Shown here piece after piece: positions 6,661 to 44,737 of a stretch of DNA of 64,000 nucleotides (its first letter is position 1; each line of letters starts with the position of its first letter). Source of the DNA: a bacterium. GTDB taxonomy: Bacteria > Hinthialibacterota > Hinthialibacteria > Hinthialibacterales > Hinthialibacteraceae. The translations under genes were made by a program, and so were the position numbers. The stretch lies in NCBI GenBank assembly GCA_963663405.2, contig CAXXSM010000149.1, positions 32,001 to 96,000 on the forward strand. Reading direction: 5' to 3'. The notes beneath the pieces were generated by a model. It saw only the letters and a program-made list of their open reading frames with translations. It had not been told where the DNA came from and did no database searches.

Positions 6661-8202
6661 ATGAAAGAGAGAAGAATGATGAAAAGAGTTTTGCTAGTTG
6701 TTCTTGTGGGGGTGTTATTTATCACTTCTGTCTATGCAGATCGGAGCCAGTACGATCCAACGAAAACACAGTTCGCCCTGCCTTTGTTGATTGACAATCC
6801 GGCGTTAGGGCCGATTGTTGTGGATGGCATCATCCATACAAGCAGGAATCAAGATGACAGTGAAGCCTGGGAGTCCGCGTACCGCTGGACTGTGTCGCCT
6901 GATTCCTCGTTGGATGACGGTGTCGCTTATGGGCATATGTCGCTAGGGGATCCACCGGAAAGCAGTGATGATCTGAGTTTTACGATCTACATCGGATATG
7001 ACAGCAAAAACCTCTATGTGGGTGTGTCAGTCAGCGATTTCGATAATTATGATGACGACGCGGCGGAAGGATCGTACAACGAAGGAAACACCTGGGACGA
7101 CGACAGTGTGGAGATTTTTGTTGATGGCGATAACAGTAATTATCCCGAACGGGATACAACGGGAAGCAATCCTGACGTTGTCGATACCGGTGGACAGTAT
7201 GTAATCACATTTAATAATGCAAGCCGTGACGCGGAAGCGGGCAGTCCCGGATTCGGGCCGGACGCGGCCTGGTACGCGAGGACGGAATTTACAGATGTTG
7301 GTTACGATGCGGAATTCCGGATTTCGTTAAGCGAGATCGGGAATCCCCAGCCGGGTGATATCATTGGCTTTACCGTCGCAGTCAACGATGATGACGACGG
7401 CGGCGCCAGTGAGCGGCAGATGATTTGGGCGGGTGAAACCCACGTCGAAGCAAGTTATGGGAATCTCGTGTTTGGTGGACGTACGATTGTCGCGCCGAAA
7501 GTCTCGACAGCGCCGACGATTGATGGCGTGATAGATCTAAGTGAATATCCCGGCGCGGTTGAACAGATTGTCAATCAGTATACCGGCAATACTTCTACTG
7601 AAGACGACGCATGGGAAGCCGGTGATTTAGAAATGTCGGCATGGGTCGTACACGATGAGGATTATATCTACGTGGCGGTCGATGTGCTGGACGACGCGAT
7701 TGTAAACGATACGGTTTCCACGCCTGGATCAATGGGGGGAAACACCTGGGATGATGATGGAATCGAAATCTATTTTGATTCGGATGAAACAAACCGGCAT
7801 AACTATTTTGGCCCCGCTCATCTGCCCCGGCATGAAGGCAATTACAACACCACCGCGAATAATTCGATCGGCGCCCCTCCGACAGGCCCTGTTTATGGGG
7901 ATGATCCAGACGCTGATTATTATTCCTTAACGACATTGACGGATGACGGTTATCAGTTGGAATTCCGGATCAAGAAACTGGCGTTGACGATTCCCGGCGA
8001 AGATGTGTTGATGGATACGTTTGGATTCAATTTCAGCGCGAACGATGATGACATCGTAGATCCTGACGGGACCACCGGTGACCGGGACGCGCCTGGCGGA
8101 CAATATCACTGGAACGGTACCGCGAATTCCGAACGGAGCTACGGCTTTTTAACATTGTCACCTGAGGAATTCACCGCCGTTCAGGAATGGGCTCTTTATT
8201 AA
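6661..8202 (+). CDS. Secreted protein with tandem CBM9/DOMON-like sugar-binding domains and C-terminal TAVQEWALY tail
   Basis: Signal peptide MMKRVLLVVLVGVLFITSVYA (start 6661, 6676 or 6679). Two repeats of P-x-[VI]DG...[YH]D...YV.V.V.D...NTWDDD.[VI]EI..D...EFRI...GF....NDDD. Confidence 0.8.
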   Translation: MKERRMMKRVLLVVLVGVLFITSVYADRSQYDPTKTQFALPLLIDNPALGPIVVDGIIHTSRNQDDSEAWESAYRWTVSPDSSLDDGVAYGHMSLGDPPESSDDLSFTIYIGYDSKNLYVGVSVSDFDNYDDDAAEGSYNEGNTWDDDSVEIFVDGDNSNYPERDTTGSNPDVVDTGGQYVITFNNASRDAEAGSPGFGPDAAWYARTEFTDVGYDAEFRISLSEIGNPQPGDIIGFTVAVNDDDDGGASERQMIWAGETHVEASYGNLVFGGRTIVAPKVSTAPTIDGVIDLSEYPGAVEQIVNQYTGNTSTEDDAWEAGDLEMSAWVVHDEDYIYVAVDVLDDAIVNDTVSTPGSMGGNTWDDDGIEIYFDSDETNRHNYFGPAHLPRHEGNYNTTANNSIGAPPTGPVYGDDPDADYYSLTTLTDDGYQLEFRIKKLALTIPGEDVLMDTFGFNFSANDDDIVDPDGTTGDRDAPGGQYHWNGTANSERSYGFLTLSPEEFTAVQEWALY

Positions 8203-8324
8203 TGACCGCATGATTGGATAGCCAAACACGGATCACTCTTGTATTAACATCTCGCGTTTTATGTGTGTAATAAACAAGGGATCCGAGGAGACCGTGATGG
8301 ATCTCCATCATGAGAAAACAAAAT

Positions 8325-8364
8325 GAGGTTCGGGCGATGTCCCTCAGAGGCGCGCCCGAACCTC
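8325..8364. repeat. Intergenic GC-rich hairpin (REP-like or RNA-stabilising)
   Basis: Perfect 12-bp stem GAGGTTCGGGCG / CGCCCGAACCTC between the tailed protein gene and the pilin gene. Confidence 0.55.
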
Positions 8365-8492
8365 CCTCCCCTAACAACCATCAGACTGTTAAACGTGTAC
8401 AACGTAAGGTGAATGAGGACAGTAAGAAAACGCGTATGTTTCAATGGGCGATTCGAAACAACGAAAGGCATGGACGGAACAGAATGGTTTAT

Positions 8493-9143
8493 ATGCGATC
8501 AGCGAAAAAGGGATTTACGTTAATTGAATTATTGATAGTGGTGGCGATTATTGGTATATTAGCCGCGATCGCGGTGCCGAATTTTCTAAATGCGCAGATT
8601 CGCGCGAAGATGGCGCGCTGTTTCGCCGATATGCGTTCGGTTGGAAATGGTATCGAACAGCTGCGGCTAGATAAGGGTGTACTGTTAATCGACTGGTGGG
8701 ATGACGATGCGCAATGGGGGCAGGAACGGTTGACGAATATCTTTAATCTTGTCGGCGCCGGGCCGGATTTTGAAGCCCGTGGAAAAGACGCTGTCATGGC
8801 TCCGTTGACCAGTCCGGTGGCGTATTTGTCTTCCATCCCAACCGATCCATTCCAGACCGGGCCGGAATTCAATTATCCTTATTACTATTATTTAGACAAC
8901 GATCCGGAAGGATCGGGTGAAGATCACGATTTCCCGGTTTACCGTATACAATCCGCCAAGCAGTATGGCACTTCACCTCTTCGCGAAGGGGAATGGGCCT
9001 TGGGTGGAATCGGGCCGGATAAAGCGTGGTACGAGACGGTGGGTGGAGATAATGTAAGTGATTTGCGGGGCGTTCATTACGATCCCTCCAATGGGCTGGT
9101 CAGCCGGGGTGATATCATGCTGACATCGCGAGGGATCAATTGA
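8493..9143 (+). CDS. Prepilin-type N-terminal cleavage/methylation protein (GspG-like paralogue)
   Basis: Class III signal MRSAKKG|FTLIELLIVVAIIGILAAIAVPNF, plus P.DPF and GPD motifs. The ORF-track start at 8310 is over-extended. Confidence 0.9.
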   Translation: MRSAKKGFTLIELLIVVAIIGILAAIAVPNFLNAQIRAKMARCFADMRSVGNGIEQLRLDKGVLLIDWWDDDAQWGQERLTNIFNLVGAGPDFEARGKDAVMAPLTSPVAYLSSIPTDPFQTGPEFNYPYYYYLDNDPEGSGEDHDFPVYRIQSAKQYGTSPLREGEWALGGIGPDKAWYETVGGDNVSDLRGVHYDPSNGLVSRGDIMLTSRGIN

Positions 9144-9256
9144 TGAGAACCACCTGCGTTTAGTATGAATTTATCTCTTCCCGTAGACAGCCCACTCCTT
9201 CAAGTCAATTATCTTTTCCCTTTATTGAAAGTGAATATTGTGTTACGTTTGAACGT

Positions 9257-12200
9257 ATGGGTGCGAATTTGTATACCAATGAATGGCATTCAATCCACAT
9301 GATATTCTACTATTCTATAATTTCTAATCGGAAAAGACTCTTCATCTTCTATTTGATATTTGTTGGTGTTTTATCTTGTCACGCAAATTCTTCTTGGCGG
9401 TATTGGAAAGTCACGGATGGATTGAGCGAATCATACTGTCATAGCGTTTCAATCGGTTACAATGGCAGTGTCTGGGTAAATCATGGGATCACAGGTACCA
9501 TGAGCCATATCACAGGATATCCCCTACGGAAAAAAGACGCCGTTTTTAACTTATCCAGTCCAGGGCCCTATGTGAAAGTGCTCCAAGACCATATTGGAAA
9601 TCTATTTTCTGTCTTCATGGGGAATCCTGGGGGATTTCAGCGATATCAACGTGAAACATGGGTGAAATATCCTGTGCAGGATATCCAACTAGTAAATTGG
9701 CTAGTCGCGGCGGATTTTCCATTTATTTCCACGGGCGCAAATACCATCCTTTATCTTTTACCCAAAAAAGTAATGGAATTCGACGCCGTTTCTTTAGAAA
9801 GTCGTATGGTCCTATCGTCAGAACAGACCGGTCTTGGTTCTTTTATCCATCTTACGGAAACATCCCATTACCCAGTCTGGATCACCGCTGAACGAGGCGT
9901 TGTGCGGTTGGAATCAGGAGAATTAAACCAGCTTCCCTATCAATGGAAGACGTATCCCCTCCCCGAATCGATCCAGGTCAAGCGATTACGGGAACCTTAT
10001 ATCGATCATCACGGCGCTTTGTATATCGTAGGAGACAGCGAAAGCAGCGGCGATCGCGTCTTGTTGGAATTTATGGATGGATGTTGGAAAGAGATCTATC
10101 AGAGCGATCGTCTAGAGCGGGGATGGCGGGATGTGGATGGCGTTTTGTGGATCCAAAAAGGCTATGAACGTTTGATGCGAATTCATGACGGGCGGGAACA
10201 TCTAATTGAGAACAAAAACGCTTTGTCCGGACAAATCTATGATATAAAAACACAACCGGATGGTGTCGCATGGATCGCCACTTCGCATGGACTCGCTCGA
10301 TATTCCCCCAGCGTTTGGCGGACTCCTTCCAGCTTGATTGATGTGAAAGACCTTGCGCTCACCATTTATGAAGATCCTGCAGGACGTCTTTGGTGCGCTT
10401 ATCGAAATATATTAGCGTTGAAGGAAAATGGACAGTGGGAAGTCTATCCGTTTGATTCAAGAATGGGTCCGACTTTTCATTTTCAAACCGATACATTGGG
10501 TATGCTAAGAGATGGCCGGCTCGCGATCGGTGTGTTTTGTCCGGATCGTTGTTACTTTTTACCCGAGCGCCGTCAATTCCAACTTGTCCATGAGGATGAG
10601 CGCAATTCGTATCAATATTTGGCTCCCCATCAGGATGGATTGATTTGGTTGGTTGTGCATGATACGAAGCGGGATATACATAGTCTAATGAGTTTTGATG
10701 GGAAACAATACGAGGAAATTATTCCCGACCTGAATTGTTTACAAGCCAATGATGTTAAAGATATCTATCGAGATCAGAAGAACCGGATTTGGATTGGGAC
10801 GACCGCCGAGTTGGCGCTCTATTCTGATGGGCGCTTCCAGCCGCTGGATGCGATGGAAACGTTTCACAACCAGGGGATATTCTGCATCCATGAGATCGAA
10901 CCGGGGACGCTTTGGTTTGGAGGGCGGAATACAATTGTTCAATATAAGGGAAACGAATGGTCAATCGTGCGGAGTGATATGGACGCTGTCCGATCGATGA
11001 TTACCGCTCAGGATGGCAGCATATGGATCGCGTCGCAAAGTGGTCTGCATCGTTTTTATCAAGGGATTTGGACTGTATATACGGATGAAGACGGATTGCC
11101 TGACATTGCCGTATACAACGTTTTTGAAGATCGTGATGGCGTGATCTGGGCGGGAACGAGCCGGGGAATCAGCCGTTATCATCCGGAATCGGACAGGGAT
11201 TGTCCGGATACAAATATTTTTATAGAAGAAAACTTATCAACAACGCCACCGGATGGCCAAGTGCGAATTGTGTTTTCTGGGGTGGATAAATGGAATCAAA
11301 CCCAGCGGGATCACATTCTCTATTCCTACCGGCTTGACCGGCGGCCTTGGTCCACGTATCGCCCAGCGACCTACGCTTCGTTTTCAAACCTAGCTCCTGG
11401 ATCGCATATGTTTGAAGTGCGGGCCATGGATCGGAACCGGAATGTAGATCCCGTACCCGCCTTGTTTGAATTTACGGTTCTACAACCTTGGTATCAGAAA
11501 CTTTCAGTCCAAATTACGTTCTGTGTCTGTATTGGCGCGATTATTATTCTTGCGCGGCTTCTTATCCATCGCCATCTTTGGCTTGAAAAGTTGGTGCAGG
11601 AACGAACCGTTGATTTGATCGCGGCGAATCAACAGTTGCACAAAGACGCAGAGGAATTGAAACAAGCGGAAACCCAACTCCGTTCCATGGCATCAGAATT
11701 AATTCTTTCAGAGGAACGCGAACGGCGCCGGATCGCTTCTGGACTGCACGACCGGATCGGTCATGCGCTGGCGTTCATCAAGATTAAGATTGGACAGTTT
11801 TTATCGACTTTGACTGATGAAGCGGACAAAGAAAACTTACATTCCATTCAGGGTGTGATTGATCATGCGATCAAAGAGACTCATGTATTGACGTTTGAGT
11901 TAAGCCCACCTATTCTGTACGAGTTGGGATTGGAAAAAGCCATTCATTGGCTGGTGAAAGAGTTTCACAAAATGTCGGGTGTGGCGCCTGTATTTGACGA
12001 TGATGGTCTCCGGGCGCCGTTGGAAGAAAATGTGCGTATTTTTCTATTTCAAGCCGTGCGTGAATTGTTGATGAATACTGCGAAACATGCGAAGGCGAAG
12101 CGGGTTGCGGTATCGATTGTTCATTTACCTGAGACGATCGTTATCACGATTGAAGACGACGGTATAGGATTTAGTCCTAGTTCGAATCAAACGCAGGCTC

Positions 12201-12343
12201 ACAAGGGATTTGGATTGTTCAGTATTTCTCAGCGGCTGCAGCATATTGGGGGGGATTGCCGGGTTGAATCGCATGCGCAACAAGGGACGCGTATCGTTTT
12301 GACCGCTCCTATCCGTAGAACGGGGGATTGTTCCGATGGCTGA
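9257..12343 (+). CDS. Sensor histidine kinase: periplasmic beta-propeller/Y_Y_Y region, TM helix, HisKA_3 and HATPase
   Basis: DGL...EDxxGxxW propeller repeats; YSYRLD...FSNLAPGSHMFEVRA; TM after PWYQ; EERERRRIASGLHDRIG H-box; ELLMNTAKHA, DDGIGF and GFGL ATPase motifs. Confidence 0.9.
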   Translation: MGANLYTNEWHSIHMIFYYSIISNRKRLFIFYLIFVGVLSCHANSSWRYWKVTDGLSESYCHSVSIGYNGSVWVNHGITGTMSHITGYPLRKKDAVFNLSSPGPYVKVLQDHIGNLFSVFMGNPGGFQRYQRETWVKYPVQDIQLVNWLVAADFPFISTGANTILYLLPKKVMEFDAVSLESRMVLSSEQTGLGSFIHLTETSHYPVWITAERGVVRLESGELNQLPYQWKTYPLPESIQVKRLREPYIDHHGALYIVGDSESSGDRVLLEFMDGCWKEIYQSDRLERGWRDVDGVLWIQKGYERLMRIHDGREHLIENKNALSGQIYDIKTQPDGVAWIATSHGLARYSPSVWRTPSSLIDVKDLALTIYEDPAGRLWCAYRNILALKENGQWEVYPFDSRMGPTFHFQTDTLGMLRDGRLAIGVFCPDRCYFLPERRQFQLVHEDERNSYQYLAPHQDGLIWLVVHDTKRDIHSLMSFDGKQYEEIIPDLNCLQANDVKDIYRDQKNRIWIGTTAELALYSDGRFQPLDAMETFHNQGIFCIHEIEPGTLWFGGRNTIVQYKGNEWSIVRSDMDAVRSMITAQDGSIWIASQSGLHRFYQGIWTVYTDEDGLPDIAVYNVFEDRDGVIWAGTSRGISRYHPESDRDCPDTNIFIEENLSTTPPDGQVRIVFSGVDKWNQTQRDHILYSYRLDRRPWSTYRPATYASFSNLAPGSHMFEVRAMDRNRNVDPVPALFEFTVLQPWYQKLSVQITFCVCIGAIIILARLLIHRHLWLEKLVQERTVDLIAANQQLHKDAEELKQAETQLRSMASELILSEERERRRIASGLHDRIGHALAFIKIKIGQFLSTLTDEADKENLHSIQGVIDHAIKETHVLTFELSPPILYELGLEKAIHWLVKEFHKMSGVAPVFDDDGLRAPLEENVRIFLFQAVRELLMNTAKHAKAKRVAVSIVHLPETIVITIEDDGIGFSPSSNQTQAHKGFGLFSISQRLQHIGGDCRVESHAQQGTRIVLTAPIRRTGDCSDG

Positions 12344-12998
12344 AAACTCAGTTCGTATCATTATTGCGGACGACCATGATATCATTCGTCATGGATTAAG
12401 AATCTTGTTGGATCAGATCGAGGAGTACGATGTGGTGGCGGAGGCGGATAATGGACGCCGCATCTTTCAGCTCGCGCGGGAGACGCAGCCGGATATCATC
12501 ACGATGGATATCACCATGCCGGAACTCAATGGGATCGAAGCGACGCGGCAAATTCTGGCCGAATGTCCAAACATCCAAATCATTGGACTGACTATGCATC
12601 CCAACTTTTTTTTCGCGGAGGAGATGTTTCTGGCGGGGGCGAAAGGGTATGTGCTTAAATCGAATGTCATGGAAGAACTCATCCCCGCTATTCAGACTGT
12701 CTTAAAGGGGGAAACGTATGTCAGTCCATTGATCAAAGATATCGAAACTGATTTTTTCTCTTCATCAACGCCACCGTCTGATAAATTGCTGTTTAAAACA
12801 TTGACCGCGAGAGAGCGGGAAGTTTTACAGCTGATCGCAGAAGGAAAATCAACAAAAGAGATTGCTTCATTAATCCATATCACCACGAAGACAGTAGAAA
12901 AACACCGTCATTTTGTTAAAAAGAAACTGAACATTCATGCAACAGCGGATTTTGTTAAATTCGCGTTGCGAATGGGATTGACCTCATTGGAATGCTGA
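12336..12998 (+). CDS. NarL/LuxR-family response regulator
   Basis: IIIADDH, MDITMPELNG, and C-terminal LTAREREVLQLIAEGKSTKEIA HTH. Overlaps the kinase stop codon. Confidence 0.95.
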   Translation: MAENSVRIIIADDHDIIRHGLRILLDQIEEYDVVAEADNGRRIFQLARETQPDIITMDITMPELNGIEATRQILAECPNIQIIGLTMHPNFFFAEEMFLAGAKGYVLKSNVMEELIPAIQTVLKGETYVSPLIKDIETDFFSSSTPPSDKLLFKTLTAREREVLQLIAEGKSTKEIASLIHITTKTVEKHRHFVKKKLNIHATADFVKFALRMGLTSLEC

Positions 12999-13115
12999 GG
13001 AAATCGCTGATATTGGATGATTGTCAGGTATTATCAATGTGGCGAATGAGGAAAGTGGGCGCATTGTGGATGTAATTCTCCTTTTCGATTCTCCCGGTCA
13101 GCGAGTCTTTTTTAA

Positions 13116-19103: not shown

Positions 19104-19950
19104 CTAGTGTTCTCTATAAACCTGAAGCGGCGTCTTATATCCCAAGGCTTGGTGTAGACGCTCATTATTGTAGAACTGAAAATAATCCGTTAGTCCGCGC
19201 ACACAATCATTCACCGTTTCGTAACTTTTGATATAGACCTCCTCATATTTCACTGACCGCCATAACCGTTCGACGAAAATATTATCGAACACTCGGCCTC
19301 TTCCATCCATGCTGATGAGAGTCCTCTCTTTCTTCAAGCGACTCGTAAAATCCGTGCTTGTGAATTGAGAGCCTTGGTCACTGTTGAAGATCGTTGGCTT
19401 ATCAATTTCAAAAGCCATCTCCAACGCTTCGAGGCAAAAGTCAACCTCCATCGAAGTGGAGACTTTCCATGACACCACATAACGACTAAACCAGTCTAAG
19501 ATCGCCACCAGGTAAACAAATCCTTGGCGCATACGTATATAGGTGATATCGGTGCTCCACACGTGATTGGGTCTTTCGATTTTCACTCCCTTCAACAGGT
19601 ATGGATATTTCTTATGCTGAACATTTCCGAGGCTCAAACGAGGCTTCGGGTAGATCGTCTCCAAGCCCATCACTCGCATTAAACGACCGATTCGTTTCTT
19701 ATTCACAACCCGTCCTAGAGTTCTCAACCATTTCTGCATTTTCCGAATTCCGTAAAACGGTGTCCGGGTATATTGTTCATCAAGCAGGTTCATCAGCGCT
19801 ACATTTTCGGCTGATTCGCCCACGGGTTGATAATAAAATCCTGAACGAGACAACCCCAGCAATTCACATTGCCTCTTTATTGAAATCTCAGAATTAGTTA
19901 GTTCGATCCAACTTCGTCTTTTCTTAACTGAGCACGTTAGACTTTTTTTT
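19104..19950 (-). CDS. IS3 OrfB (DDE integrase core)
   Basis: WSTDITYI, FNSDQGSQF and DNIFVERLWRSVKYE. The frame is open upstream of 19862 to the A9 run (KRRSWIE...ISIKRQCELLGLSRS). Confidence 0.93.
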
Positions 19951-29665: not shown

Positions 29666-31129
29666 ATGAAAAATAAGTTTTTTTTCATCTTTGCAGTAGC
29701 TTCTGTAATTTCTTTATCACTGATGGTCAATGCGGGGTACGCCCAAGTTTTCTTTGAGGATGACTTCAACGATGGCGGAACTGCGGGCGCTGTAGAAAGA
29801 GGTTGGGAATTTATTGAAAATGAATTCGTGACCGAAGTGGGCAGTTTTTTCGTCATTGCGCCGGAATGGCCCGTAAGAGAACCTAGCTCCGACACAGGTA
29901 TCCTCAATCCTCCTACAGCGGATGGCACGGCATCTGACGGTGGTTTTTTGATTGCCGACTCCGATGCGGGAGACGGTTCCGATGACATTGGTTCCCAGTC
30001 TGATATTTACGCTATTTCTCCTGTTTTCAGCACTGAAGGCGCCAGCGAAGTCTGGTTCCACGCCGACACGGAAATTGAAATCAATAATAATGGGGAATGT
30101 GTGATGGAATTCATGGTCACCGCAGACGGTGGAGAAACTTGGATTCCCGTCTTTCAAGGAATTGAACCAGAACGAGTCATTGACTCATTCAACGGTGGCG
30201 GTGTCGGCCGGGACCGGACGGATGGATGGCCGGTATTAGGCAGCGCGTCTCACACAAAATCCTTTGGAGGAATTCATGGGCGTTGGCATTTACAATTGCC
30301 TGATGAAGTTGTGAACAAACCTGAAGTTCGATTTCGGATAGGATATTATGAACCGGCGGACGCTTGGTGGATCACAATGGATAACGTTGTTGTCGACGCT
30401 TCACCTCCCCCCATGGGATCGGAAGTGATTCTGACTGAAGATTTCGAAAATGGCATTCCCGAAACTTGGTCCAACACGACGGCGAAAGAAACTCCAACTG
30501 GTGAGGATCAGCTCTGGGACACAAAGCCGATCTGGGACGAAGATTTCGATGAACCTTACAAGTTCAGTGAAAGTATGGGATTAGCTGTTAATATCGACAT
30601 TGTCCGCCAAGCGGAATCTTTTGATCTTGTTCTCGATCTTGACAATCCCGATGAATATTTTAATCCAAAAGGCGTCTTGGATGGCCGTTGGGTTCTTATG
30701 TTGGCCGGTCAAGGCTATGCGATGTGGCAGGAAGGCGATTTAGACCAGCTGAATGGTGTCAGTGAAGGAGCGAATTTAGATACGCCGGTTCTGGATTGCA
30801 GCAATTACACAGGAGTTTATCTCGCTTTTGATTCAGAATTGCTCGTAGGAAACAGCTCGGCGCGATATGAAGTGTATGTCAGCGCTGATGGCGGCGCCTC
30901 CTTTGATCGATTATTCACTTACACCGAAGCCTTAATGAACTATGAAGAAGCCCCTTACTTCGACCGTCACTATCTCGAAGCGCCCCAGGCGGCCGGTCAG
31001 AGTGAAGTTATTTTCCGTTTTCAAGCCATCGGGGAAGATCCTGGTGAAATGGAAGGATTTTGGGTTATTGATAACGTCAGCATAACCGCTGATTCCGGCA
31101 CACCCGTTACCGATTGGGTCTTATATTAA
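29666..31129 (+). CDS. Secreted acidic protein, two MAM/cleaved-adhesin-like jelly-roll domains, C-terminal TPVTDWVLY tail
   Basis: AAGGAG RBS; signal peptide ending AGYA; two repeats of E.F...[ST]PV...V[TS]ADGG..[WF]...EV.FR...W..DNV. Confidence 0.8.
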   Translation: MKNKFFFIFAVASVISLSLMVNAGYAQVFFEDDFNDGGTAGAVERGWEFIENEFVTEVGSFFVIAPEWPVREPSSDTGILNPPTADGTASDGGFLIADSDAGDGSDDIGSQSDIYAISPVFSTEGASEVWFHADTEIEINNNGECVMEFMVTADGGETWIPVFQGIEPERVIDSFNGGGVGRDRTDGWPVLGSASHTKSFGGIHGRWHLQLPDEVVNKPEVRFRIGYYEPADAWWITMDNVVVDASPPPMGSEVILTEDFENGIPETWSNTTAKETPTGEDQLWDTKPIWDEDFDEPYKFSESMGLAVNIDIVRQAESFDLVLDLDNPDEYFNPKGVLDGRWVLMLAGQGYAMWQEGDLDQLNGVSEGANLDTPVLDCSNYTGVYLAFDSELLVGNSSARYEVYVSADGGASFDRLFTYTEALMNYEEAPYFDRHYLEAPQAAGQSEVIFRFQAIGEDPGEMEGFWVIDNVSITADSGTPVTDWVLY

Positions 31130-31330: not shown

Positions 31331-31966
31331 ATGAAAAACAAAGTAGTTAAAAGGGGATTTACTCTCATTGAACTTCTCATCGTGGTCGCCATTATCGGAA
31401 TTTTGGCGGCGATCGCCGTGCCCAATTTTTTGAACGCCCAGATCCGGGCGAAGATCTCCCGGTGTGTGGCGGATATCCGGATGCTGAATCAGCAAGTCAC
31501 GATTTTTCATATGGATAAAAACCGGTGGCTGATCGACGGCAACGATTGTGATGGCTCATCAGAATGTTGTTTCGAAGGTGAATATATCGGGAAACATCCA
31601 AATACATCGAATGTTTCTGTCCTGCAGGGCGCCAATCATTTTGATGGGCGTATTTATCAACCTTTAACTACTCCCATCGCGTACATCAGCAGTATTCCCA
31701 TTGATCCATTCAGCGATGGTTTGTTCTATTCCTATGAAGATTGGGATTGCTCGAATAATGGAGGTTTCTTCGGGCTTTTAGCGGCGACCGGTCCGGATGC
31801 GGATAATGGCGATTGGCATCCCGATCAGCGGTCCATTGTATACTATGGGACAAACGGTCTTGCAAGCAACGGCGACATCTGGTACATCTGGCTGTTCAAA
31901 CCTGGTTATACCAATACCCAATATGAAACCTACTTTAAAAAATCCGGTTGGAGCGCTCAATATTAA
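31331..31966 (+). CDS. Prepilin-type N-terminal cleavage/methylation protein (GspG-like paralogue)
   Basis: AGGAG RBS; MKNKVVKRG|FTLIELLIVVAIIGILAAIAVPNFLNAQIRAK; LTTPIAYISSIPIDPF; TGPD; TNGLASNGDI. Confidence 0.92.
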   Translation: MKNKVVKRGFTLIELLIVVAIIGILAAIAVPNFLNAQIRAKISRCVADIRMLNQQVTIFHMDKNRWLIDGNDCDGSSECCFEGEYIGKHPNTSNVSVLQGANHFDGRIYQPLTTPIAYISSIPIDPFSDGLFYSYEDWDCSNNGGFFGLLAATGPDADNGDWHPDQRSIVYYGTNGLASNGDIWYIWLFKPGYTNTQYETYFKKSGWSAQY

Positions 31967-34234: not shown

Positions 34235-36457
34235 ATGAGTGGTCATATAACTCTGACCTATCAACAGCGTTTGGAGAGTTTACGGTCAATTAAACTGGAG
34301 CAAACGAGAGAAAAACAACGCCTCAAAGGCGCGATGGATATGGACGATCAGGGACAAGTTCTCCCACCGATGGATCAAGCGGAGATGATTGAGATTATCA
34401 GCGGTTCGGGCGTCAAAGTGAAAGAATTTGTATTAAAGGATTTTCGCGCACAAACAGATCATCCCAGTGGCGGCATCTTCGGTCCCAAATCATGTGGCGT
34501 CAATTTTAAGGCGTTGTTGGATGTTCATCCAACGTATATCCAACCACTCAACTCGATGGCGGGTGTATACCGGGTCTATTTTATCAGCCATCGTGATCCC
34601 GCTTGGAATCCAGAATTCGATTGTTTGCCCATCACGAAACGGTTGGAGCAATACGGCGTAATCGATCATGGGATCGGCGGCGTACAGCATTTTTGCCCGG
34701 ATCTGACTATCGGCTTGGAACTCGGTTGGGAAGGCTTGAAAAACAAAGTACAACATTACCACAAGTTAAATCCGGATAAGTCTGATTTTTATGATGGACT
34801 GGAGGCTATCCTGACCGGCGTTCAGCATTGGATCCAGCGTCATTCGGACGACGCGCGGCGGATGGCGGAAGAGGAAGAACACCCCCAACTTATCGAAAAC
34901 TTGTTGACGATCGCGGATATCTGCGAGCGGCTCGTTTATCTTCCCCCCAATTCCTTCCGGGAAGCATGCCAGTGGCTGGTGTTCTTCCAAGCTGTGGCCA
35001 AGATGTACAATGGAAGCGGTGAATGGGGTCAATTGGATGAATTGCTAAGACCGTATTATGAAAAAGATATGCGGCGGGGTGTCCTGACTGATGAAGAGGC
35101 TGTTTTTCATATCGCCTGTCTGCTCCTCAGCGAGACCGCTTACATTCAATTGGGGGGGCCGGACGCCCAGGGGAACGACCTGACCAGCCATGTATCGTTT
35201 CTGATCTTGGAAGCGATTCATCAATTGAAAATACCCGCGAATATCGCCTTGCGCGTCAGCGATGATATGAATCCTGATCTCTTCCGGCGCGGATTGGAAA
35301 TCCTCTGTGAGGACAAAATGGGATTCCCGAAATTCATTGGAGACAAGCCACTGATCGAGGGATGCTTAAAAAGCGGTTTTACAGTTGATGAAGCCCGGCG
35401 CCGTATTTATGCGGGTTGTCATTGGATGGCTGTTCCCGGACGGGAATACGGCTTGATGGATATGATCAAGCTGGATTTCGCATGGTTGTTTGATCGCGCT
35501 TTGAAAGAGATGATGGCTGATAATTCGATTGCGCCAAGTGTGGAGGAATTATGGAACCGGTTTGAGAAATTGATCCGGGGCGCCGTGGTTGCGATCGCCT
35601 TGGGGATTGATTTTCATATGGAACATATGCATCAAGTGTTCCCCGAATTGTTCCTGGATCTATTTTGTCACGGCCCTGTTGAAAAGGGAGAAGACATCAG
35701 TCATGGGGGAGTGGATATTTATAAAATCGGAGTCGACGGCGCGTCACTCGCCACAGTCGCCGACTCGTTCGCGGCGATAGAACAGCGTGTTGAAAAGGAC
35801 AGCCGGTTGACGTGGGAAGAATTGATGAACCATATCGAATCCGATTGGCAGGGAAAGGAAGGGGAACAAGCGCGGCGCCTAATGAAGACGATCCCCCGGT
35901 TTGGAAGAGGAGGCTCGTCCGCCGATGAATGGGCCGTTCGGATATCGAAAACCTTCAGCCGTATCGTGATTGAAAAGAAAACCCCCAATGGTTTTTCAAT
36001 GATTCCAGGACTGTTCTCCTGGGCGCGTGTAATTGATTATGGAAAACGATTAGGCGCAACGCCAGACGGACGGAAAGCGGGAGAGCCGGTTTCACATGGT
36101 CCCAATCCAGCGCCTGGCTTCAATTGTGGAAAACCGGGCACTCCAACCCAACTCTCCACGGCCGTCGCCTCGGTCCAACCGGGTTATGGGAATTCCGCTC
36201 CATTACAACTTGACTTGGATCCCTCCATTGCGGAAGATGACGAAGGAATTGAAAAAACCGGCGCTTTGATCCGCGCTCATTTTGACTTGGGTGGGACGAT
36301 GATTAATATCAATGTTATGAATAAGAAGCAGATTCTTGAAGCGTATGAAGAACCATCCCGCTATCCCGATTTGATAGTGCGTGTGACGGGATTCAGCGCC
36401 TATTTTGCCAGTTTATCGGATGAAATGCGGAAATATATTGTCGATCGGCTTGTTTAG
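34235..36457 (+). CDS. Glycyl radical enzyme (PFL superfamily, unknown substrate)
   Basis: C-terminal YPDLIVRVTGFSAYF (Gly719), GATPDGRKAGEP, and a single-Cys loop YAGCHW (Cys395). Confidence 0.92.
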   Translation: MSGHITLTYQQRLESLRSIKLEQTREKQRLKGAMDMDDQGQVLPPMDQAEMIEIISGSGVKVKEFVLKDFRAQTDHPSGGIFGPKSCGVNFKALLDVHPTYIQPLNSMAGVYRVYFISHRDPAWNPEFDCLPITKRLEQYGVIDHGIGGVQHFCPDLTIGLELGWEGLKNKVQHYHKLNPDKSDFYDGLEAILTGVQHWIQRHSDDARRMAEEEEHPQLIENLLTIADICERLVYLPPNSFREACQWLVFFQAVAKMYNGSGEWGQLDELLRPYYEKDMRRGVLTDEEAVFHIACLLLSETAYIQLGGPDAQGNDLTSHVSFLILEAIHQLKIPANIALRVSDDMNPDLFRRGLEILCEDKMGFPKFIGDKPLIEGCLKSGFTVDEARRRIYAGCHWMAVPGREYGLMDMIKLDFAWLFDRALKEMMADNSIAPSVEELWNRFEKLIRGAVVAIALGIDFHMEHMHQVFPELFLDLFCHGPVEKGEDISHGGVDIYKIGVDGASLATVADSFAAIEQRVEKDSRLTWEELMNHIESDWQGKEGEQARRLMKTIPRFGRGGSSADEWAVRISKTFSRIVIEKKTPNGFSMIPGLFSWARVIDYGKRLGATPDGRKAGEPVSHGPNPAPGFNCGKPGTPTQLSTAVASVQPGYGNSAPLQLDLDPSIAEDDEGIEKTGALIRAHFDLGGTMININVMNKKQILEAYEEPSRYPDLIVRVTGFSAYFASLSDEMRKYIVDRLV

Positions 36458-36466
36458 CGAATTGGA

Positions 36467-37387
36467 TTGCGCAAAGGATTGGATGTGAAAGGTCTTGTTT
36501 TTGATATTGAGCGATTTGCCGTTCATGACGGCCCGGGGATTCGGACGACGGTGTTTTTGAAAGGATGTCCTCTTCGATGTAAGTGGTGTCATAATCCTGA
36601 ATCGATCTCATTTGATCCCGAATTACTGCTGACAACGGAGTTATGCGTATCCTGTGGAGCGTGTGTTGAAATCTGCGGGCAAAACGCGCATGTCTTTGTT
36701 GACAACCGCCATATGATGAATCGGGAACGCTGTATTCTCTGCGGTGAATGCGTTCAACATTGTATAACCGGGGCGTTGGAGATTGCGGGAAATGAAAGGT
36801 CTGTTGAGGATGTTTTGGGTGAAATTCTTTGTGACCGGCCCTACTATCAACGATCGGGCGGTGGATTGACTGTGTCCGGGGGAGAACCGCTGGCGCATCA
36901 TGCGTTCACTATTGCCTTGTTGGAGGCCGCCCGTAAGGAGAGAATCCATTGCGCGCTGGATACGTCCGGCTTGGCTCCCTGGCCGATTTTCAAAGAGGTC
37001 TCAGAGCGTGCGGATTTGATACTCTATGATTTAAAGCACATCGATCGTGAACGGCATAAACAACTGACAGGCGTGTATAACGATATCATTTTGGAAAACT
37101 TGGAAAGATTGGATCAAGCAGATATTCCAATCTGGATTCGGATTCCATTAGTTCCCGGTCAAAACAATGATGATATTACTTTTCACGAACTCGGCGCTTT
37201 TCTCGCTCGCAGGAACAACATCCGGCGGGTGGAGATTGTGCGTTACAACCGCCTGGCGGAATCCAAGTACGAACGGTTGAATCAATCGTATTCTTTTCGT
37301 GGATTACGCATACCCTTGATGGAAGAGGCGGAATCGAGGAAAGAGATATTAATGCGATATGGGCTGAAATCAGTTGTATGCCGGTGA
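36467..37387 (+). CDS. Glycyl-radical activating enzyme (radical SAM with ferredoxin insert)
   Basis: HDGPGIRTTVFLKGCPLRCKWCHNPES, two CxxCxxCxxxC motifs, SGGEP. An alternative GTG start lies at 36485. Confidence 0.95.
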   Translation: MRKGLDVKGLVFDIERFAVHDGPGIRTTVFLKGCPLRCKWCHNPESISFDPELLLTTELCVSCGACVEICGQNAHVFVDNRHMMNRERCILCGECVQHCITGALEIAGNERSVEDVLGEILCDRPYYQRSGGGLTVSGGEPLAHHAFTIALLEAARKERIHCALDTSGLAPWPIFKEVSERADLILYDLKHIDRERHKQLTGVYNDIILENLERLDQADIPIWIRIPLVPGQNNDDITFHELGAFLARRNNIRRVEIVRYNRLAESKYERLNQSYSFRGLRIPLMEEAESRKEILMRYGLKSVVCR

Positions 37388-37614: not shown

Positions 37615-38664
37615 ATGTTACAGCATAATTTGACTCGGCGGAAATTTATACGTACTGTGACTCTGAGCGCTGCGATGGCGAATTCAATTAATTCAAAAGC
37701 AGTATCGCAATCGGTACATGAATTGTTTTGGGGATGTTTATTGCATTTGAGTTTCAACATGTGGGAGAGTTTTATCTCGCCTCATCGTCCTTTTCGTGGT
37801 TATCGGCCGGACCTGGAACTCAGCGAGAGACTCTGGAACGATGCGTTGGATCGTATGGCTGAATGTGGTGTTAATACACTCGTTATCGATCTCGGTGACG
37901 CAGTGAAATATAAAAGTCATCCAGAAATAGCCGTCAATAACGCTTGGTCTGTAGAACGTTTAAAACAGGAATTATCCAGGATTCGCAGCATGGGGATGAA
38001 TCCAATCCCTAAACTGAACTTTTCAGCGACACATGATACTTGGCTTGGACCTTATGCCCGCATGGTTTCCACCAAACCATATTATGCTGTTTGCCGTGAT
38101 ATCATTATAGAAGTGGCGGAAATATTTGACGGGCCTTCGTTGTTTCACTTAGGTATGGATGAAGAGACTGCTGAACACCAACAGTATTATAAATATGTTG
38201 TAGTGCGCCAAGGTGAACAATGGTGGAATGACTTACATTTCTTGATTGATGAAGTCGTAAAAAACGGTTCCCGGCCTTGGGTATGGTCAGATTATGAATG
38301 GAACCATCCAGATGAATTTTTCAAGAATATGCCAAAATCAGTTCTGCAGAGCAATTGGTATTACGGTGAGAAATTTGACATAAAACATGAACATGTAAAA
38401 GCTTATCTTGATTTAGAAAAACATGGTTACGATCAAGTCCCTACGGCGAGCTTTCATACGACTAATTCGAAGAGTATCGAAAACACAGTTCAATTTTGCT
38501 CTCAATGCATAACTGAACAGCATTTAAAGGGATTTCTACAAACCATTTGGAAACCTGCGATTGAAGAGTATCGAGACCGTTATCTTGAAGGAATTGAGTT
38601 ATTAGGGAGGGCGAAGAAAGAGTATGAAAGACGAACTAAGTATGACAATGAATCGAAGGGATGA
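37615..38664 (+). CDS. Tat-exported TIM-barrel protein, GH20-like
   Basis: LTRRKFIR Tat motif; Y.SHPEI, IPKLNFS..H and FHLGMDE resemble the hexosaminidase H.G.DE motif. Confidence 0.65.
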   Translation: MLQHNLTRRKFIRTVTLSAAMANSINSKAVSQSVHELFWGCLLHLSFNMWESFISPHRPFRGYRPDLELSERLWNDALDRMAECGVNTLVIDLGDAVKYKSHPEIAVNNAWSVERLKQELSRIRSMGMNPIPKLNFSATHDTWLGPYARMVSTKPYYAVCRDIIIEVAEIFDGPSLFHLGMDEETAEHQQYYKYVVVRQGEQWWNDLHFLIDEVVKNGSRPWVWSDYEWNHPDEFFKNMPKSVLQSNWYYGEKFDIKHEHVKAYLDLEKHGYDQVPTASFHTTNSKSIENTVQFCSQCITEQHLKGFLQTIWKPAIEEYRDRYLEGIELLGRAKKEYERRTKYDNESKG

Positions 38665-38839
38665 AACACATAATATATCTTTCGAACTGTGTTTATTTAA
38701 ATATTTTATCACAAAATTAATTGAGTAATAATTTTTTACAGAATAATTTGTCTGTTTAATTTCCTTTGTTTGTATTTGAAAAACTGGAATCAATGGATTT
38801 GCGAGATCGGAGTTAAGAATGTCGTGAAAGGATAAAACA

Positions 38840-40840: not shown

Positions 40841-40876
40841 ATTACAAAAAAAAACAAGAATCTCTGAAATCGTAGG

Positions 40877-42367
40877 TTATTGTACAGAAATGGGGAATTC
40901 ACGAATCGACTCGTTGAGTGTCCATCGTATACGATAGTCTCCAACAGGTACTGCGCTCGAATCCCATTCAAAAATTAAGATTCCACTATCATCTTCGGTG
41001 ATACTATCGGATTTTTGTTTGCGAATATCCAAAACTTTTTTCTGCCCGTCTCGAGAGTACAAGGCAATATCCACATTCCCTTTAACACGTGATTGGCTAA
41101 TCAAAAATGATTTTTTATCTTGCATAATATTGCTCGGAATTGCCGCCACCATAGATAAATAGCAATTGCTGTTAAAAGGGCGTTGCAATTCAGTGACCGG
41201 TAGCTGTTCATAATGACGATTGAATGTAATCGGAGTTTGATCATTTATATTAGCGAGTTCACGAATCGTAACGTCAAAATCAGCTAAGCCTCTCCATATT
41301 GTTCCAGCCAGTTTGGGAAATTCGCCTCCAGGCGCTTTCGTAATAGGGATTTTTCCTAACGACGCCATTTGGACAGCGTAATTGGAATTACGCCATTTAG
41401 GATTCTCTCGATCTCCATTCCACATGACCTTGAGATTTGTATTAATGATTCGTTGGATATCTTCCTTTGTAAATGTAAGTCCGGAATGATAGGCTTCGAC
41501 GATTTCATAAATCTCTCCCGCTTGATAATTGCGGTAGGGATGAACATTCACCCAATGGCGAAGCGTATTTGGAGAGGAAAAATCGATGTCCCAAACGCCA
41601 AATGGTTCCCAATAATTCCATACATAATGATCCTGATACAAACACATGCGGCTCTTCATAAAATTAAAAATCTTTAAAGCTCGTTCACGATATTTATCGA
41701 TTTTCGTGATTCGATAAATCCGCAGACAAGCGATGGCCATTGAATTTTGCTTATTGAATGGAAGCGTAAGATTTGATTTTATTGCAGGAAGAACTCGCCA
41801 TGCGCTAAGGTTATCTTTCGTCAAATAGTGATCCCACGAACGATATGCGCCGTATGGACCATCTTCATACCATGTTCCTCGCTGATCCCATTTTTCGATC
41901 AAGTGCTTTTGGGCAAATTTCAAATATGCTTTCGCTTTGGATGAGTAGGATTGCTGGATTGCAGGATCCTCATGGTTTAGAACCGTTTCACAAAATTCCA
42001 ACATGGGATTAATCAAGATTGCGTCGCCTATATGCGCGTCACAGATATAATTTTCATCATAAATATAAGGACCGACCCATCCTTTATATCCATCCGGCGC
42101 TTGACGCGTCTTTGCGAGCAGGGCGTCATAGTAACGAATCGCGGAGTCAAGAAAAGAGCGATCTAGAGTCGAGTTATACTCATCCATGAAAGCGTTCATG
42201 TTATAGGCCGCATGCCAACATAATCCCTCGCCGGTCAACGATCCATCAACCTTCAGTAAGGGAGTTCTCATCCGGCTCTGGAGTAATTCATCCGCATTTC
42301 TATTCGACCAACAAATCGATGAAAAACACAAGATGATGAGAAATGACAAGAGTAAAATTTGTTTCAC
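40877..42367 (-). CDS. Secreted hypothetical protein (probable alpha/alpha toroid)
   Basis: 496-aa ORF with a signal peptide and an aromatic-rich helical pattern. Family not recognised. Confidence 0.65.
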   Translation of the reverse strand: MKQILLLSFLIILCFSSICWSNRNADELLQSRMRTPLLKVDGSLTGEGLCWHAAYNMNAFMDEYNSTLDRSFLDSAIRYYDALLAKTRQAPDGYKGWVGPYIYDENYICDAHIGDAILINPMLEFCETVLNHEDPAIQQSYSSKAKAYLKFAQKHLIEKWDQRGTWYEDGPYGAYRSWDHYLTKDNLSAWRVLPAIKSNLTLPFNKQNSMAIACLRIYRITKIDKYRERALKIFNFMKSRMCLYQDHYVWNYWEPFGVWDIDFSSPNTLRHWVNVHPYRNYQAGEIYEIVEAYHSGLTFTKEDIQRIINTNLKVMWNGDRENPKWRNSNYAVQMASLGKIPITKAPGGEFPKLAGTIWRGLADFDVTIRELANINDQTPITFNRHYEQLPVTELQRPFNSNCYLSMVAAIPSNIMQDKKSFLISQSRVKGNVDIALYSRDGQKKVLDIRKQKSDSITEDDSGILIFEWDSSAVPVGDYRIRWTLNESIREFPISVQ

Positions 42368-42698
42368 GATTTTTCCTTTCGATTAGAGTCAATCGCTTGA
42401 TTGTAGATAAGAATCCAAATAGTGATCTTGGTTATTGATTGTTTAAATATCCATTGAAGCGATTCCCGTATTTGTTGAAATCCTTCTTTATTTTACTAAT
42501 CGACTATGGTGTTATGAAGTGTACACGTATTTATCCTCTCTGGTTACTTACTTGTTTTAGCCTTTTTCAATCGTTTTCTCAATATTTCATACGATCATAT
42601 GCCTAAGTGTTTATACGAATCACATCCTTGACAATTTTTCTGAAGACACGCATTATGATAATACGAAATAGAAATACGTAACACTTCCAGGATCGAAA

Positions 42699-43409
42699 AT
42701 GTTATGCCTCCAAAAAGGATTCACTCTAATAGAACTTCTTGTCGTTGTGGCCATCATCGGGATTTTAGCCGGAATTGTTGGCGCTAATATGATCGACGCA
42801 TTGCGCCGCGCCGATGACGCCGCCTGTAAAGAGAATCTTCATTCCCTCTTCACCGCTATGCAGGCGTACCGTCTGGATTACGGCCGTTTTCCGCTTGTGG
42901 ATGGTGTGGCGGATACGGTATCCCGTCCTGAAACAACGGCGTGGGGATGCGGCCCGGCGGCGAACGGTTATTGGACCGGCGTCCCCATGTCCTTAGTCGA
43001 ATTAGGGTATTGTTCTGAGTCCTGCCTTTATTGTCCCGCTCTTAAGCGGCAGAACAGCCATACTATCGAAGCGTATTCAAATTGTGGGAATTCTTCCTTT
43101 TCGGGCAAGGAAGTCCCACAGTGGCGTTATTTGCGTTACGCGTACGATCGGGCTGCGATTGATTCCGGCGGGCCAGACAGCGAAAGCGAGGCGATTGGTC
43201 TCTTCAACATCGATCGAAACACCAATGACGTCTGGCTGGCGCGATGTATGCATGTCAATGTAGGGAAATACTACCGGGATCGCGACATCCGCTTTCCTCA
43301 TCGTATCGAAATTGACGAAGAAAGGCCCGATCTCGCCCATTTCGGCGAATACGAAGTCACCATCAACGGCAATATCCGCGAACATGCGGTTCAATTAAAA
43401 AGGAGATAA
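42699..43409 (+). CDS. Prepilin-type N-terminal cleavage/methylation protein (divergent, Cys-rich)
   Basis: MLCLQKG|FTLIELLVVVAIIGILAGI...ACKENLHSL..AMQAYRLDYG.FP, with LYCPA. Confidence 0.9.
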   Translation: MLCLQKGFTLIELLVVVAIIGILAGIVGANMIDALRRADDAACKENLHSLFTAMQAYRLDYGRFPLVDGVADTVSRPETTAWGCGPAANGYWTGVPMSLVELGYCSESCLYCPALKRQNSHTIEAYSNCGNSSFSGKEVPQWRYLRYAYDRAAIDSGGPDSESEAIGLFNIDRNTNDVWLARCMHVNVGKYYRDRDIRFPHRIEIDEERPDLAHFGEYEVTINGNIREHAVQLKRR

Positions 43410-43414
43410 GAAGA

Positions 43415-44737
43415 ATGAGACGATTTTGTGTTGGACTGTTTTCCGTTTTGATATTGATTTGTGCGATGCTCCAAAGCGCTTGGCCGCAACTGGCCGTTCC
43501 AGAATTTGGAGACGCCGTACAGATCACGGATACAGATCTTGCCTCCCTATTAGCGCGAAGTCCTGAAGGTTCTTTCATGTTCGACAGTCATGGAAGGTTG
43601 CATCTGGTTTACACGGAGAAAAATGCGGAGGGCACCAGTTTAGGGAATCCGGGTTTAATGCTGTATTGTAATTTTTTGGATGGGGAATGGTCCGAACCGT
43701 TAGCCATCCGTTCGGATGCAGGAGAAGGAATTCCATTCTGCAATGGAGGAGAACCAGCGCTTTGGGTTCAGGACGATCAAACCGTTCATTTTGTTTTTCA
43801 TGATTACCGGTACAGCACTAGCAGCAGCGGGACGAATCAAGTTGAAGTCTATTACCGTAAGTTACTTCCCTCAGGTGAATTCGAGTCCGATGAAATGCGA
43901 ATCACCGATAATGAGAAGAATTCATGGCGGCCCAAAATCGCGCTCAATCAAGACAACCAAATCGCTCTTGTATGGTATGATTATTCTCAAAGTTCCCTAG
44001 GCGATTTGATGCTTGCTTTGTCCGATTCGAATCAGCAATTTCCAACAGCCACGGATTATGCCAGCCAAGTCGTCGCGAACGCCAATCCAAATGGTGAGGG
44101 AGTTCAAATGACGAATGCTGTGTTTGATCATGAAGGTCGCCTTCATGTAGTGTGGACCGCGGCGGAACTGGATGGTTTTACGTATGTGAATGAACGCTTG
44201 ATATACGGCGTTTTAAACGATCCAGCGAGCCGAACTTTAGACCAAAGGATCGAAGTCAGTTCTCGCGGAACCCTTTCCACTGATCCGGCAAAGATTCAGG
44301 TCGACGATGATACCGTATGGATTGTATGGACAGATATGAAAACACAAATACCCAATATTTTTCTGGCTTCGAAAAAAATTGATCAATCAGAATTCAGCGA
44401 TCCTATACAGATCTCAAACAATGACCTTCCTGATGAGGTTGGTTTTGCTGATTTAGCCATCTCTCCGGATGGAATAATCTATACGGTCTGGACCGATTTC
44501 AGAACCGGTGAAGGTGATATCTATCTTCGAATGTATGATCCCGTTTCCATGATCCTTTCAGAGATCACTCAGATCACGACCGATGATTTCAATGTAGATG
44601 AAAAACCTGGAATCGCCATCAGTCCTAATGGACAGATCGCGATTCTTTGGGAGAGCAATGTGGAGGGGAGAACCAATTTGATGATGCTCCTAATGGAGTC
44701 CGATACTTCCGTCGGGGATTGGATGCGGTTCGATTAG
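43415..44737 (+). CDS. Secreted acidic protein, probable 7-bladed beta-propeller, C-terminal TSVGDWMRFD tail
   Basis: Signal peptide; seven blade-like repeats (LHLVY, VHFVF, IALVW, LHVVW, VWIVW, IYTVW, IAILW); starts 5 bp after the pilin stop. Confidence 0.75.
   Translation: MRRFCVGLFSVLILICAMLQSAWPQLAVPEFGDAVQITDTDLASLLARSPEGSFMFDSHGRLHLVYTEKNAEGTSLGNPGLMLYCNFLDGEWSEPLAIRSDAGEGIPFCNGGEPALWVQDDQTVHFVFHDYRYSTSSSGTNQVEVYYRKLLPSGEFESDEMRITDNEKNSWRPKIALNQDNQIALVWYDYSQSSLGDLMLALSDSNQQFPTATDYASQVVANANPNGEGVQMTNAVFDHEGRLHVVWTAAELDGFTYVNERLIYGVLNDPASRTLDQRIEVSSRGTLSTDPAKIQVDDDTVWIVWTDMKTQIPNIFLASKKIDQSEFSDPIQISNNDLPDEVGFADLAISPDGIIYTVWTDFRTGEGDIYLRMYDPVSMILSEITQITTDDFNVDEKPGIAISPNGQIAILWESNVEGRTNLMMLLMESDTSVGDWMRFD

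Follow-up and report, generated by a model that had tools for sequence, protein, structure and literature searches.

The 64,000-nt window analyzed here (contig CAXXSM010000149.1, positions 32,001 to 96,000 of the forward strand; assembly GCA_963663405.2, a bacterium of the phylum Hinthialibacterota) encodes three secreted proteins, cargo 1 to cargo 3, which carry a tail of nine or ten residues at the extreme C-terminus and are each encoded beside a prepilin-type gene, pilin 1 to pilin 3. This tail was found to be a phylum-wide C-terminal tag: about 190 exoproteins per genome carry it, and these are Sec-exported, very acidic and almost never lipoproteins. Its connection with pilins is supported both statistically and evolutionarily for a minority of the tagged genes. 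The initial annotation of the window had stated that the three proteins were unrelated and shared only their last residues, and that each adjoined a co-oriented prepilin gene. The endings were as described, the proteins fell into three separate BLAST clusters, the gene coordinates were confirmed, and all three pilins exceeded the cut-offs of PF07963 and TIGR02532. The accompanying statement of exclusivity also held, as the only three pilin-like genes of the window were the neighbours of its only three tail-scoring genes, and the tail was absent from the 17 other signal-peptide-like genes of the window.

The tail was then defined on the whole assembly (8.44 Mb, 170 contigs), in which a greedy non-overlapping set of open reading frames (ORFs) gave 8156 genes. 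A position matrix was iterated from the 25 genes matching [ST]xVx[DE]Wxx[YF]x?$, and a tail was called at 10 bits or more. On this basis 189 of the 8156 genes carried a tail, and no gene reached 8 bits when the matrix was placed at internal control positions, 30 or 60 residues before the C-terminus. The motif was [TSV]-x-[VI]-x-[DN]-W-x-[LIV]-[YFH] followed by 0-2 residues, with consensus counts (n = 189) of T 90, S 46 and V 46 at the first position, V 140 and I 29 at the third, D 62 and N 43 before the tryptophan, W 179, L 116, I 29 and V 25 before the aromatic position, and Y 104, F 41 and H 34 at it. The protein ended exactly at the aromatic position in 151 cases, one residue later in 35 and two residues later in 3. 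All four valine codons, all six leucine codons and all the threonine codons were in use within the tails, so that selection constrains the peptide rather than a DNA element. An origin of the tail as a DNA repeat or mobile element was also considered and was excluded by the synonymous codon diversity.

The 189 tail proteins formed 73 single-linkage BLAST clusters. When representatives of the 40 largest clusters were scanned against Pfam (E <= 1e-4), a family was matched in 18 and none in 22. The families found were CotH/LTD, leucine-rich repeat (LRR), LamG, WD40, PD40, beta-helix/pectinesterase, FGE-sulfatase, esterase, papain, CBM9, FG-GAP and cohesin-like. Among the tail carriers are proteins that bind glycans or act on them, proteases, proteins of the LRR, LamG and CotH types, and numerous proteins of unknown fold. 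A crude test detected a signal peptide in 147 of the 189, and the proteins that failed it were mostly fragment-like or had weaker yet visible signal peptides; the assembly carries frameshifts, probably including one in a split CobN gene. Every one of the 147 proteins with a signal peptide had an isoelectric point (pI) below 5.5, with a median of 4.1 as against 5.9 in other secreted-type genes, and a lipobox-like motif was found in 2 of the 147, compared with 160 of 1964 other secreted-type genes. The tail is undescribed in the databases and literature searched. No Pfam or NCBIfam model extended to the C-terminal end of any of the three window proteins or 40 cluster representatives, and the tail has neither a transmembrane helix nor a basic cluster, which bears out the view of the initial annotation that it is none of the known tripartite sorting signals. 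Searches of the literature full text with tail pentapeptides returned only unrelated uses among the matches listed, and the accessible part of the description of Ca. Hinthialibacter (PMC9324843) held nothing under 'C-terminal', 'sorting' or 'secret'.

The distribution of the tag was measured with the degenerate DNA pattern V-x-[DN]-W-x-[LIVM]-[YFH]-stop, the matches being compared with control matches. Of the 35 sampled genomes of the phylum, most were enriched in the tag, and no enrichment was seen in 62 genomes outside the phylum. The source genome gave 62 matches against 2 control matches, and all 19 genomes of the same family gave 10-55 against 0-3. Counts ranged from 6 to 36 in six genomes of the same order, the lowest being that of a 77% complete genome (G023), and from 5 to 22 in family f5 of the same class, while two other same-class genomes were near background (G026, 3 matches; G028, 1 match). 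G033 is likewise among the genomes poor in the tag. Outside the phylum, 0-2 matches were obtained in six outgroup genomes, 0-4 (control 0-2) in five genomes of other phyla and 0-4 (control 0-3) in 51 Verrucomicrobiota genomes. Low counts may in part come from diverged tails, because the G028 homologue of cargo 3 ends in ..VPARAWEALR. Metagenome-assembled genomes (MAGs) that are labelled Candidatus Omnitrophota and encode W-tailed CBM9 homologues carried the tag at 23-36 matches. One MAG with such a homologue, SURF_12, belongs to phylum OLB16, which is Candidatus Hinthialibacterota according to the accessible part of PMC9324843, and this probably places the source genome in that phylum as well.

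The excess of pilin neighbours anticipated by the initial annotation was borne out by two sets of tail genes. Among the 25 genes matching the regular expression, 8 touched a pilin gene (expected 0.82; maximum 5 in 2000 shuffles), and among the 189 tails called by the matrix, 22 did so, the shuffled-label expectation being 6.4 (standard deviation 2.4, maximum 18 in 1000). A pilin lay within two genes of 32 tail genes, compared with 11.8 expected. Against a secreted-type baseline, in which 76 of 1964 other genes (3.9%) touched a pilin, the odds ratio was 3.3 (Fisher p = 2e-5). When gene families were ranked by their enrichment within two genes of tail genes, pilins came first (32/138, p = 1.6e-8) and the rest were small local duplications; no other large gene family was enriched there. 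The pilin was co-oriented and 7-228 nt downstream in 11 of the 22 cases, upstream in 6 and in opposite orientation in 5. In a genome of another genus (G010, 8 contigs), a co-oriented pilin motif followed 6 of 53 tail stops at 46-274 nt, where random positions gave 0.10 on average and at most 2 in 2000; this test used 100 of the 107 pilin motifs. Thirty loci of G012 and G015 contained 2 tails with a co-oriented downstream pilin. The families that ranked next after pilins in enrichment near tail genes were small conserved neighbours of a 477-residue tail-like protein (..VENWK[NI]H), with which they form a cassette repeated three times in the genome (contigs C4, at 78-83 kb, C86 and C110); the C4 copy also has a divergent pilin gene.

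Pairs 2 and 3 of the window are cargo-pilin units conserved across genera. Orthologues of cargo 2 (E <= 1e-120) were found at 9 loci in 8 relative genomes, and they ended in the same tail or a variant of it, such as ..SVPDWAQL. A co-oriented pilin lay just downstream at 6 of the 9 loci, in 5 of them an orthologous one: the pilins beside cargo-2 orthologues in 5 other genomes shared 69-76% identity with pilin 2 in the variable domain, whereas its best paralogue in its own genome shared 55% or less. Among the exceptions, two loci had no pilin within 1.5 kb and one was the second copy of a tandem duplicate. For pair 3, the atypical pilin was found 0-15 nt upstream of the propeller gene at 7 of 8 close orthologue loci in two families. 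Six distant cargo-3 homologues in family f5 kept the tail and had no pilin nearby. The proposal of the initial annotation that each cargo has its cognate pilin failed genome-wide, where most tail genes and most pilins are unpaired.

Structure models place the tail outside the folded domains, as a flexible appendage. In the AlphaFold2 (AF2) model of cargo 1 (mean predicted local distance difference test score, pLDDT, 86.4), the last strand stops at residue 503 without secondary structure beyond it, and residues 508-513 are below 50; in that of cargo 3 (pLDDT 84.9), residues 431-440 are below 50. The latter model resembled GH145/PL42-type propellers best in Foldseek (5mvh, 5muk, 7esl; template-modelling score 0.61-0.71). 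Two of the initial fold labels were upheld, namely the tandem CBM9 of cargo 1 by PF06452 and the propeller of cargo 3 by the model. The MAM-like label of cargo 2 was not, as only weak jelly-roll-type matches were obtained: a weak one to Reelin_subrepeat-B and one to choice-of-anchor J over residues 373-473 at 26 bits (cut-off 30).

Homologues of cargo 1 indicated what the tail replaces. Among the best 120 CBM9 homologues, 43 ended in the tail (median length 489 residues), 6 in PEP-CTERM (median 581 residues) and 6 in other ways. The PEP-CTERM model TIGR02595 matched one of these PEP-CTERM homologues (P0006) and no tail protein. A choice-of-anchor Q domain was found directly before the tail of one tagged protein (43.6 bits, cut-off 25), and the NCBI definition of this family rests on its use with varied sorting signals. 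In the source genome, 2 proteins matched the PEP-CTERM regular expression, neither convincingly. The tail fills the position that a PEP-CTERM anchor takes in homologues of other phyla. The remaining 65 of the best 120, mostly labelled Verrucomicrobia, had a C-terminal extension of 50-60 residues or longer with an F-Y-R-V-like end, which may be another lineage-specific C-terminal module at the same position.

The genome contains 143 pilin-like genes. About 125 of them encode GspG-like paralogues of 175-220 residues, and most of these stand alone beside unrelated genes. The paralogues share a near-identical 33-residue N-terminus (FTLIELLIVVAIIGILAAIAVPNFLNAQ.RAK) and a C-terminal SNGL.S.GDI motif, both of which are present in pilin 1. 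The expansion is phylum-wide, with 28-206 motif matches per genome in 35 of the 35 sampled genomes; the excerpts of the DUF1559 and pseudopilin literature among the matches listed held nothing on pilin expansions or tails. The window pilins did not reach the TIGR01710 GspG equivalog (46.6 bits for pilin 1, then 50.9 and 56.5; cut-off 88.85), and the GspG proteins encoded in the operons for type II secretion systems (T2SS) matched PF08334 over their full length. There are two complete T2SS operons (contigs C29 and C118), 7 matches to GspE/PilB-family ATPases, 8 to secretins and only 2 to the plug domain of TonB receptors; the likeness in role to SusC/SusD pairs put forward in the initial annotation found no support. 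No PDZ-type GspC was seen in either T2SS operon. The GspK homologues matched sequences of the PDB weakly (E = 0.015-0.93) and are too divergent to be judged by sequence for the terminal strand in cis that E. coli GspK and P. aeruginosa XcpX possess. On contig C143, three large minor-pilin-like genes and the proteins after them are without the tail. Charge complementarity between cargo and pilin was considered as well and was excluded, the globular domains of the pilins being acidic too (median pI 5.0).

The features of the three pairs are given in Table 1. From the long ORF calls of the pilins, the intergenic gaps were 107 nt in pair 1 and 15 nt in pair 2, or 290 and 201 nt when counted from the starts at 8493 and 31331; in pair 3, in which pilin 3 lies upstream of cargo 3, the gap was 5 nt.

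Table 1. Positions of the cargo genes, their tails and the adjacent pilin genes in the window
Feature	Position	Strand	Basis
Cargo 1, secreted tandem CBM9 protein with tail	6661..8202	+	PF06452, E = 1.4e-31, two stretches
Tail 1, TAVQEWALY	8173..8199	+	translation; position-specific scoring matrix, 23 bits
Pilin 1, GspG-like prepilin of a ~125-member paralogue family	8493..9143	+	PF07963, TIGR02532 above cut-off
Cargo 2, secreted two-domain jelly-roll-like protein with tail	29666..31129	+	weak domain matches, orthologues
Tail 2, TPVTDWVLY	31100..31126	+	translation
Pilin 2, cognate pilin of cargo 2	31331..31966	+	PF07963, TIGR02532; orthologous pilins beside cargo-2 orthologues
Pilin 3, atypical prepilin without SNG..GDI motif	42699..43409	+	PF07963, TIGR02532; weak T2SSG match
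Cargo 3, secreted GH145/PL42-like beta-propeller with tail	43415..44737	+	AF2 model, Foldseek
Tail 3, TSVGDWMRFD	44705..44734	+	translation; one residue past the aromatic position

Glycan-active genes are abundant around the pairs (GH106, BNR_2, two DUF2961 genes and a GDSL esterase). Directly after pair 1 (9257-12998), a sensor kinase of 1028 residues with Reg_prop/Y_Y_Y propeller repeats and a LuxR-type response regulator are encoded, the kinase being of the sensor type found in the hybrid two-component regulators of Bacteroides polysaccharide utilization loci (PULs). The adjoining kinase and regulator suggest that pair 1 is under glycan-responsive control. An rve-family integrase/transposase of an insertion sequence element lies on the minus strand (19104-19862) between glycan-active genes and the gene of a 970-residue LRR protein. 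Pairs 2 and 3 are separated by, among others, a glycyl-radical enzyme (PFL-like and Gly_radical) with its radical-SAM activase (34235-37387). Cargo 3 is directly followed by a MotA/ExbB-family gene (44799..45347) and then by the CobN/Mg-chelatase region (45698-49238), in which two overlapping ORFs (45698..48193 and 48015..49238) both match PF02514; this split is probably an assembly frameshift.

The reading that we put forward, tentatively and as a good possibility, is that the tail is a phylum-wide docking tag read by a type IV filament system, much as the tails of PilC/PilY1 adhesins are. In the accessible part of a recent study, the last ~10 residues of these adhesins complete the beta-sheet of the PilK/PilX minor pilins in trans (2026; PMC13533445). 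The same source describes, in the part available, an equivalent strand that T2SS GspK supplies in cis (PMC13533445). As far as the excerpts of the two relevant papers go, PilC/PilY tails consist of about 10 residues, with a conserved tryptophan, one or two further residues and then hydrophobic ones, and dock by beta-strand addition (PMC13711793, PMC13533445). Docking of the present tail on a pilin is thus offered as a hypothesis with good precedent. Since a near-invariant tail occurs on 73 clusters, one shared reader would be expected rather than pair-specific docking, and this reader would belong to a type IV filament (T2SS-like pseudopilus) system. The length of the tail, its terminal position, the conserved tryptophan, the hydrophobic residues downstream of it, the free end and the association with pilins together favour docking by strand addition, and in the most likely mode a pilin-type subunit would gain a beta-strand from the tail, as PilK/PilX does from PilC/PilY1. 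Filaments built from the more than 100 GspG-like pilin paralogues would then load, display or push out the tagged proteins. A subset of 6-17% of the tail genes, depending on the measure, would form two-gene units with a dedicated pilin of their own, and a shared pool of pilins would serve the rest. A bolder form of this idea is in our judgement rather unlikely: as a universal beta-strand supplied in trans, the tail would plug any of the ~190 acidic exoproteins into a family of more than 100 pseudopilins and make a T2SS-type filament a programmable scaffold (a 'pilus cellulosome') on which glycan binders and enzymes are displayed or exported.

Several observations weigh against filament docking. 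No pilin neighbour was found for 167 of the 189 tail genes (88%), nor any pilin within two genes for 157, and 121 of the 143 pilins have no tail neighbour. The numbers of pilins and tags are also uncoupled in some genomes (166 pilin motifs and 6 tags in G023, 206 and 17 in G021). For pair 1, a pilin lay within 700 nt downstream of one and upstream of another of 17 W-tailed CBM9 homologues in other genomes, a comparison confined to homologues of 49% identity or less that are possibly paralogues. The adjacent pilins are GspG-like rather than PilK/PilX-like and keep a C-terminal motif of their own, and cargo 3 is no PilY1 homologue, since it resembles GH145/PL42 propellers. A complex prediction for pilin 2 (residues 31-211) with the C-terminal domain and tail of cargo 2 (residues 240-487) from orthologue alignments scored 0.01 relative to a mark of 0.32 and, run without controls, speaks neither for nor against binding.

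The low share of paired tail genes and the uncoupled counts in G021 and G023 would fit with a pilin-independent surface-sorting or anchoring signal, read by an outer-membrane or surface receptor or by a processing enzyme and analogous to PEP-CTERM/exosortase or the C-terminal domain (CTD) of the type IX secretion system (T9SS); the pilin adjacency would then reflect co-regulation in polymer-utilisation loci. The exchange of PEP-CTERM for the tail among homologues, the choice-of-anchor domains directly before tails (Q scoring above its cut-off, J below), and the want of a convincing PEP-CTERM protein in the genome point the same way. This explanation leaves unaccounted for that pilins are the only large family enriched beside tail genes and that units with orthologous pilins persist across genera, and the families near tail genes include no candidate receptor or processing enzyme; we regard it as conceivable, though doubtful. 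A second alternative is a linear T2SS export signal, which the secretin, the platform in the inner membrane or the tip of the pseudopilus would read solely for passage across the outer membrane, after which the proteins would be released. The two full T2SS operons and further secretins, the nature of the cargo (typical exoenzymes and binders), the Sec-type signal peptides of non-lipoproteins and the statistical link to GspG-like genes are consistent with it. It is nevertheless improbable: neither operon was seen to encode a PDZ-type GspC, the tail sits where relatives have retention anchors and not export signals, and no organism is known to use a linear T2SS signal.

The free hydrophobic or aromatic C-terminus could also make the tail a ligand of a periplasmic PDZ domain or a tail-specific protease, in the manner of Prc/CtpA or DegS, and hence a tag for quality control, processing or stress sensing. 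A carboxylate-anchored PDZ site tolerates extra terminal residues poorly, and 38 of the 189 tails run one or two residues past the aromatic position; moreover, conservation reaches 9 residues upstream, and neither the pilin linkage nor the replacement of PEP-CTERM would be explained. A protease ligand is accordingly held to be very improbable.

Short linear C-terminal tags that address a large share of an exoproteome are rare, and the known ones each led to a new machine (sortase, exosortase, T9SS). The present tag marks about 2% of the genes across an uncultured phylum of polymer degraders. Its tie with pilins provides a testable idea on the purpose of the massive pseudopilin expansions in bacteria resembling the Planctomycetes-Verrucomicrobia-Chlamydiae (PVC) group and bears on the possible ability of type IV filament machines to recognise a linear signal. 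If the bolder form of the docking idea were true, no linear targeting signal would have been known before this one for a machine of the type II secretion type, and the binding of cargo might even license the assembly of the filament, in the way of the PilY1 strand. A 9-residue filament-loading tag could also be tried as a display handle.

Among known systems, the tripartite signals (PEP-CTERM/exosortase, LPXTG/sortase and GlyGly-CTERM/rhombosortase) resemble the tail in that they, too, form the very C-terminal end of many secreted proteins that belong to one lineage and are unrelated to each other, and the tail is interchangeable with PEP-CTERM among homologues; unlike them, it is free of a transmembrane helix and basic cluster, and the protein ends 0-2 residues after the motif. 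The T9SS CTD likewise tags exoproteins at the C-terminus throughout a lineage, and many of these are glycan-active. It folds into a domain of roughly 70-100 residues, whereas the tail has 9-12 residues, is modelled as disordered and matches no hidden Markov model (HMM); the T9SS models TIGR04183 and PF18962 had no match in the last 60 residues of the 40 cluster representatives. In the outer-membrane beta-signal, a terminal aromatic residue closes the last strand of a beta-barrel. The tail shares this terminal aromatic residue and differs in that its carriers have soluble folds (CBM9, propeller), with the tail outside the fold. The WxL domain of Bacillota is a folded C-terminal domain of ~160 residues or more with two WxL motifs, and Pfam matched no member of this family in the three proteins of the window, in the 40 representatives or in their final 60 residues.

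The dockerin-cohesin pairing of the cellulosome is alike in idea, in that many enzymes and binders reach a common scaffold through a single small element for docking at the C-terminus. The dockerin module binds calcium and has roughly 70 residues, and the Pfam scans of the tail-protein representatives showed no dockerin family; here the tag is a 9-residue peptide and the proposed scaffold a pilin filament. PilC/PilY1 differs from the present system in being one adhesin family, as opposed to ~190 unrelated proteins per genome, in its PilK/PilX partners, in place of which GspG-like paralogues are the neighbours here, and in its propeller, that of cargo 3 being GH145/PL42-like. The search of the genome with the PilY1 family PF05567 gave no match and was uninformative, as the control genomes were silent too, and among longer cargo-3 homologues (771-2200 residues) a search for pilin-propeller fusions gave 3 matches, none with a pilin domain, a fusion of ~680 residues lying outside this range. 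The likeness to the PilC/PilY1 tail is found in the tail itself: in both cases about 10 terminal residues of a non-pilin secreted protein project from the folded domain, a place beside pilin genes is shared in part, by 22 of the 189 tail genes, and the PilC/PilY1 motif recurs here with tryptophan in 179 of the 189 tails, L, I or V at position -2 in 170 and Y, F or H at position -1 in 179.

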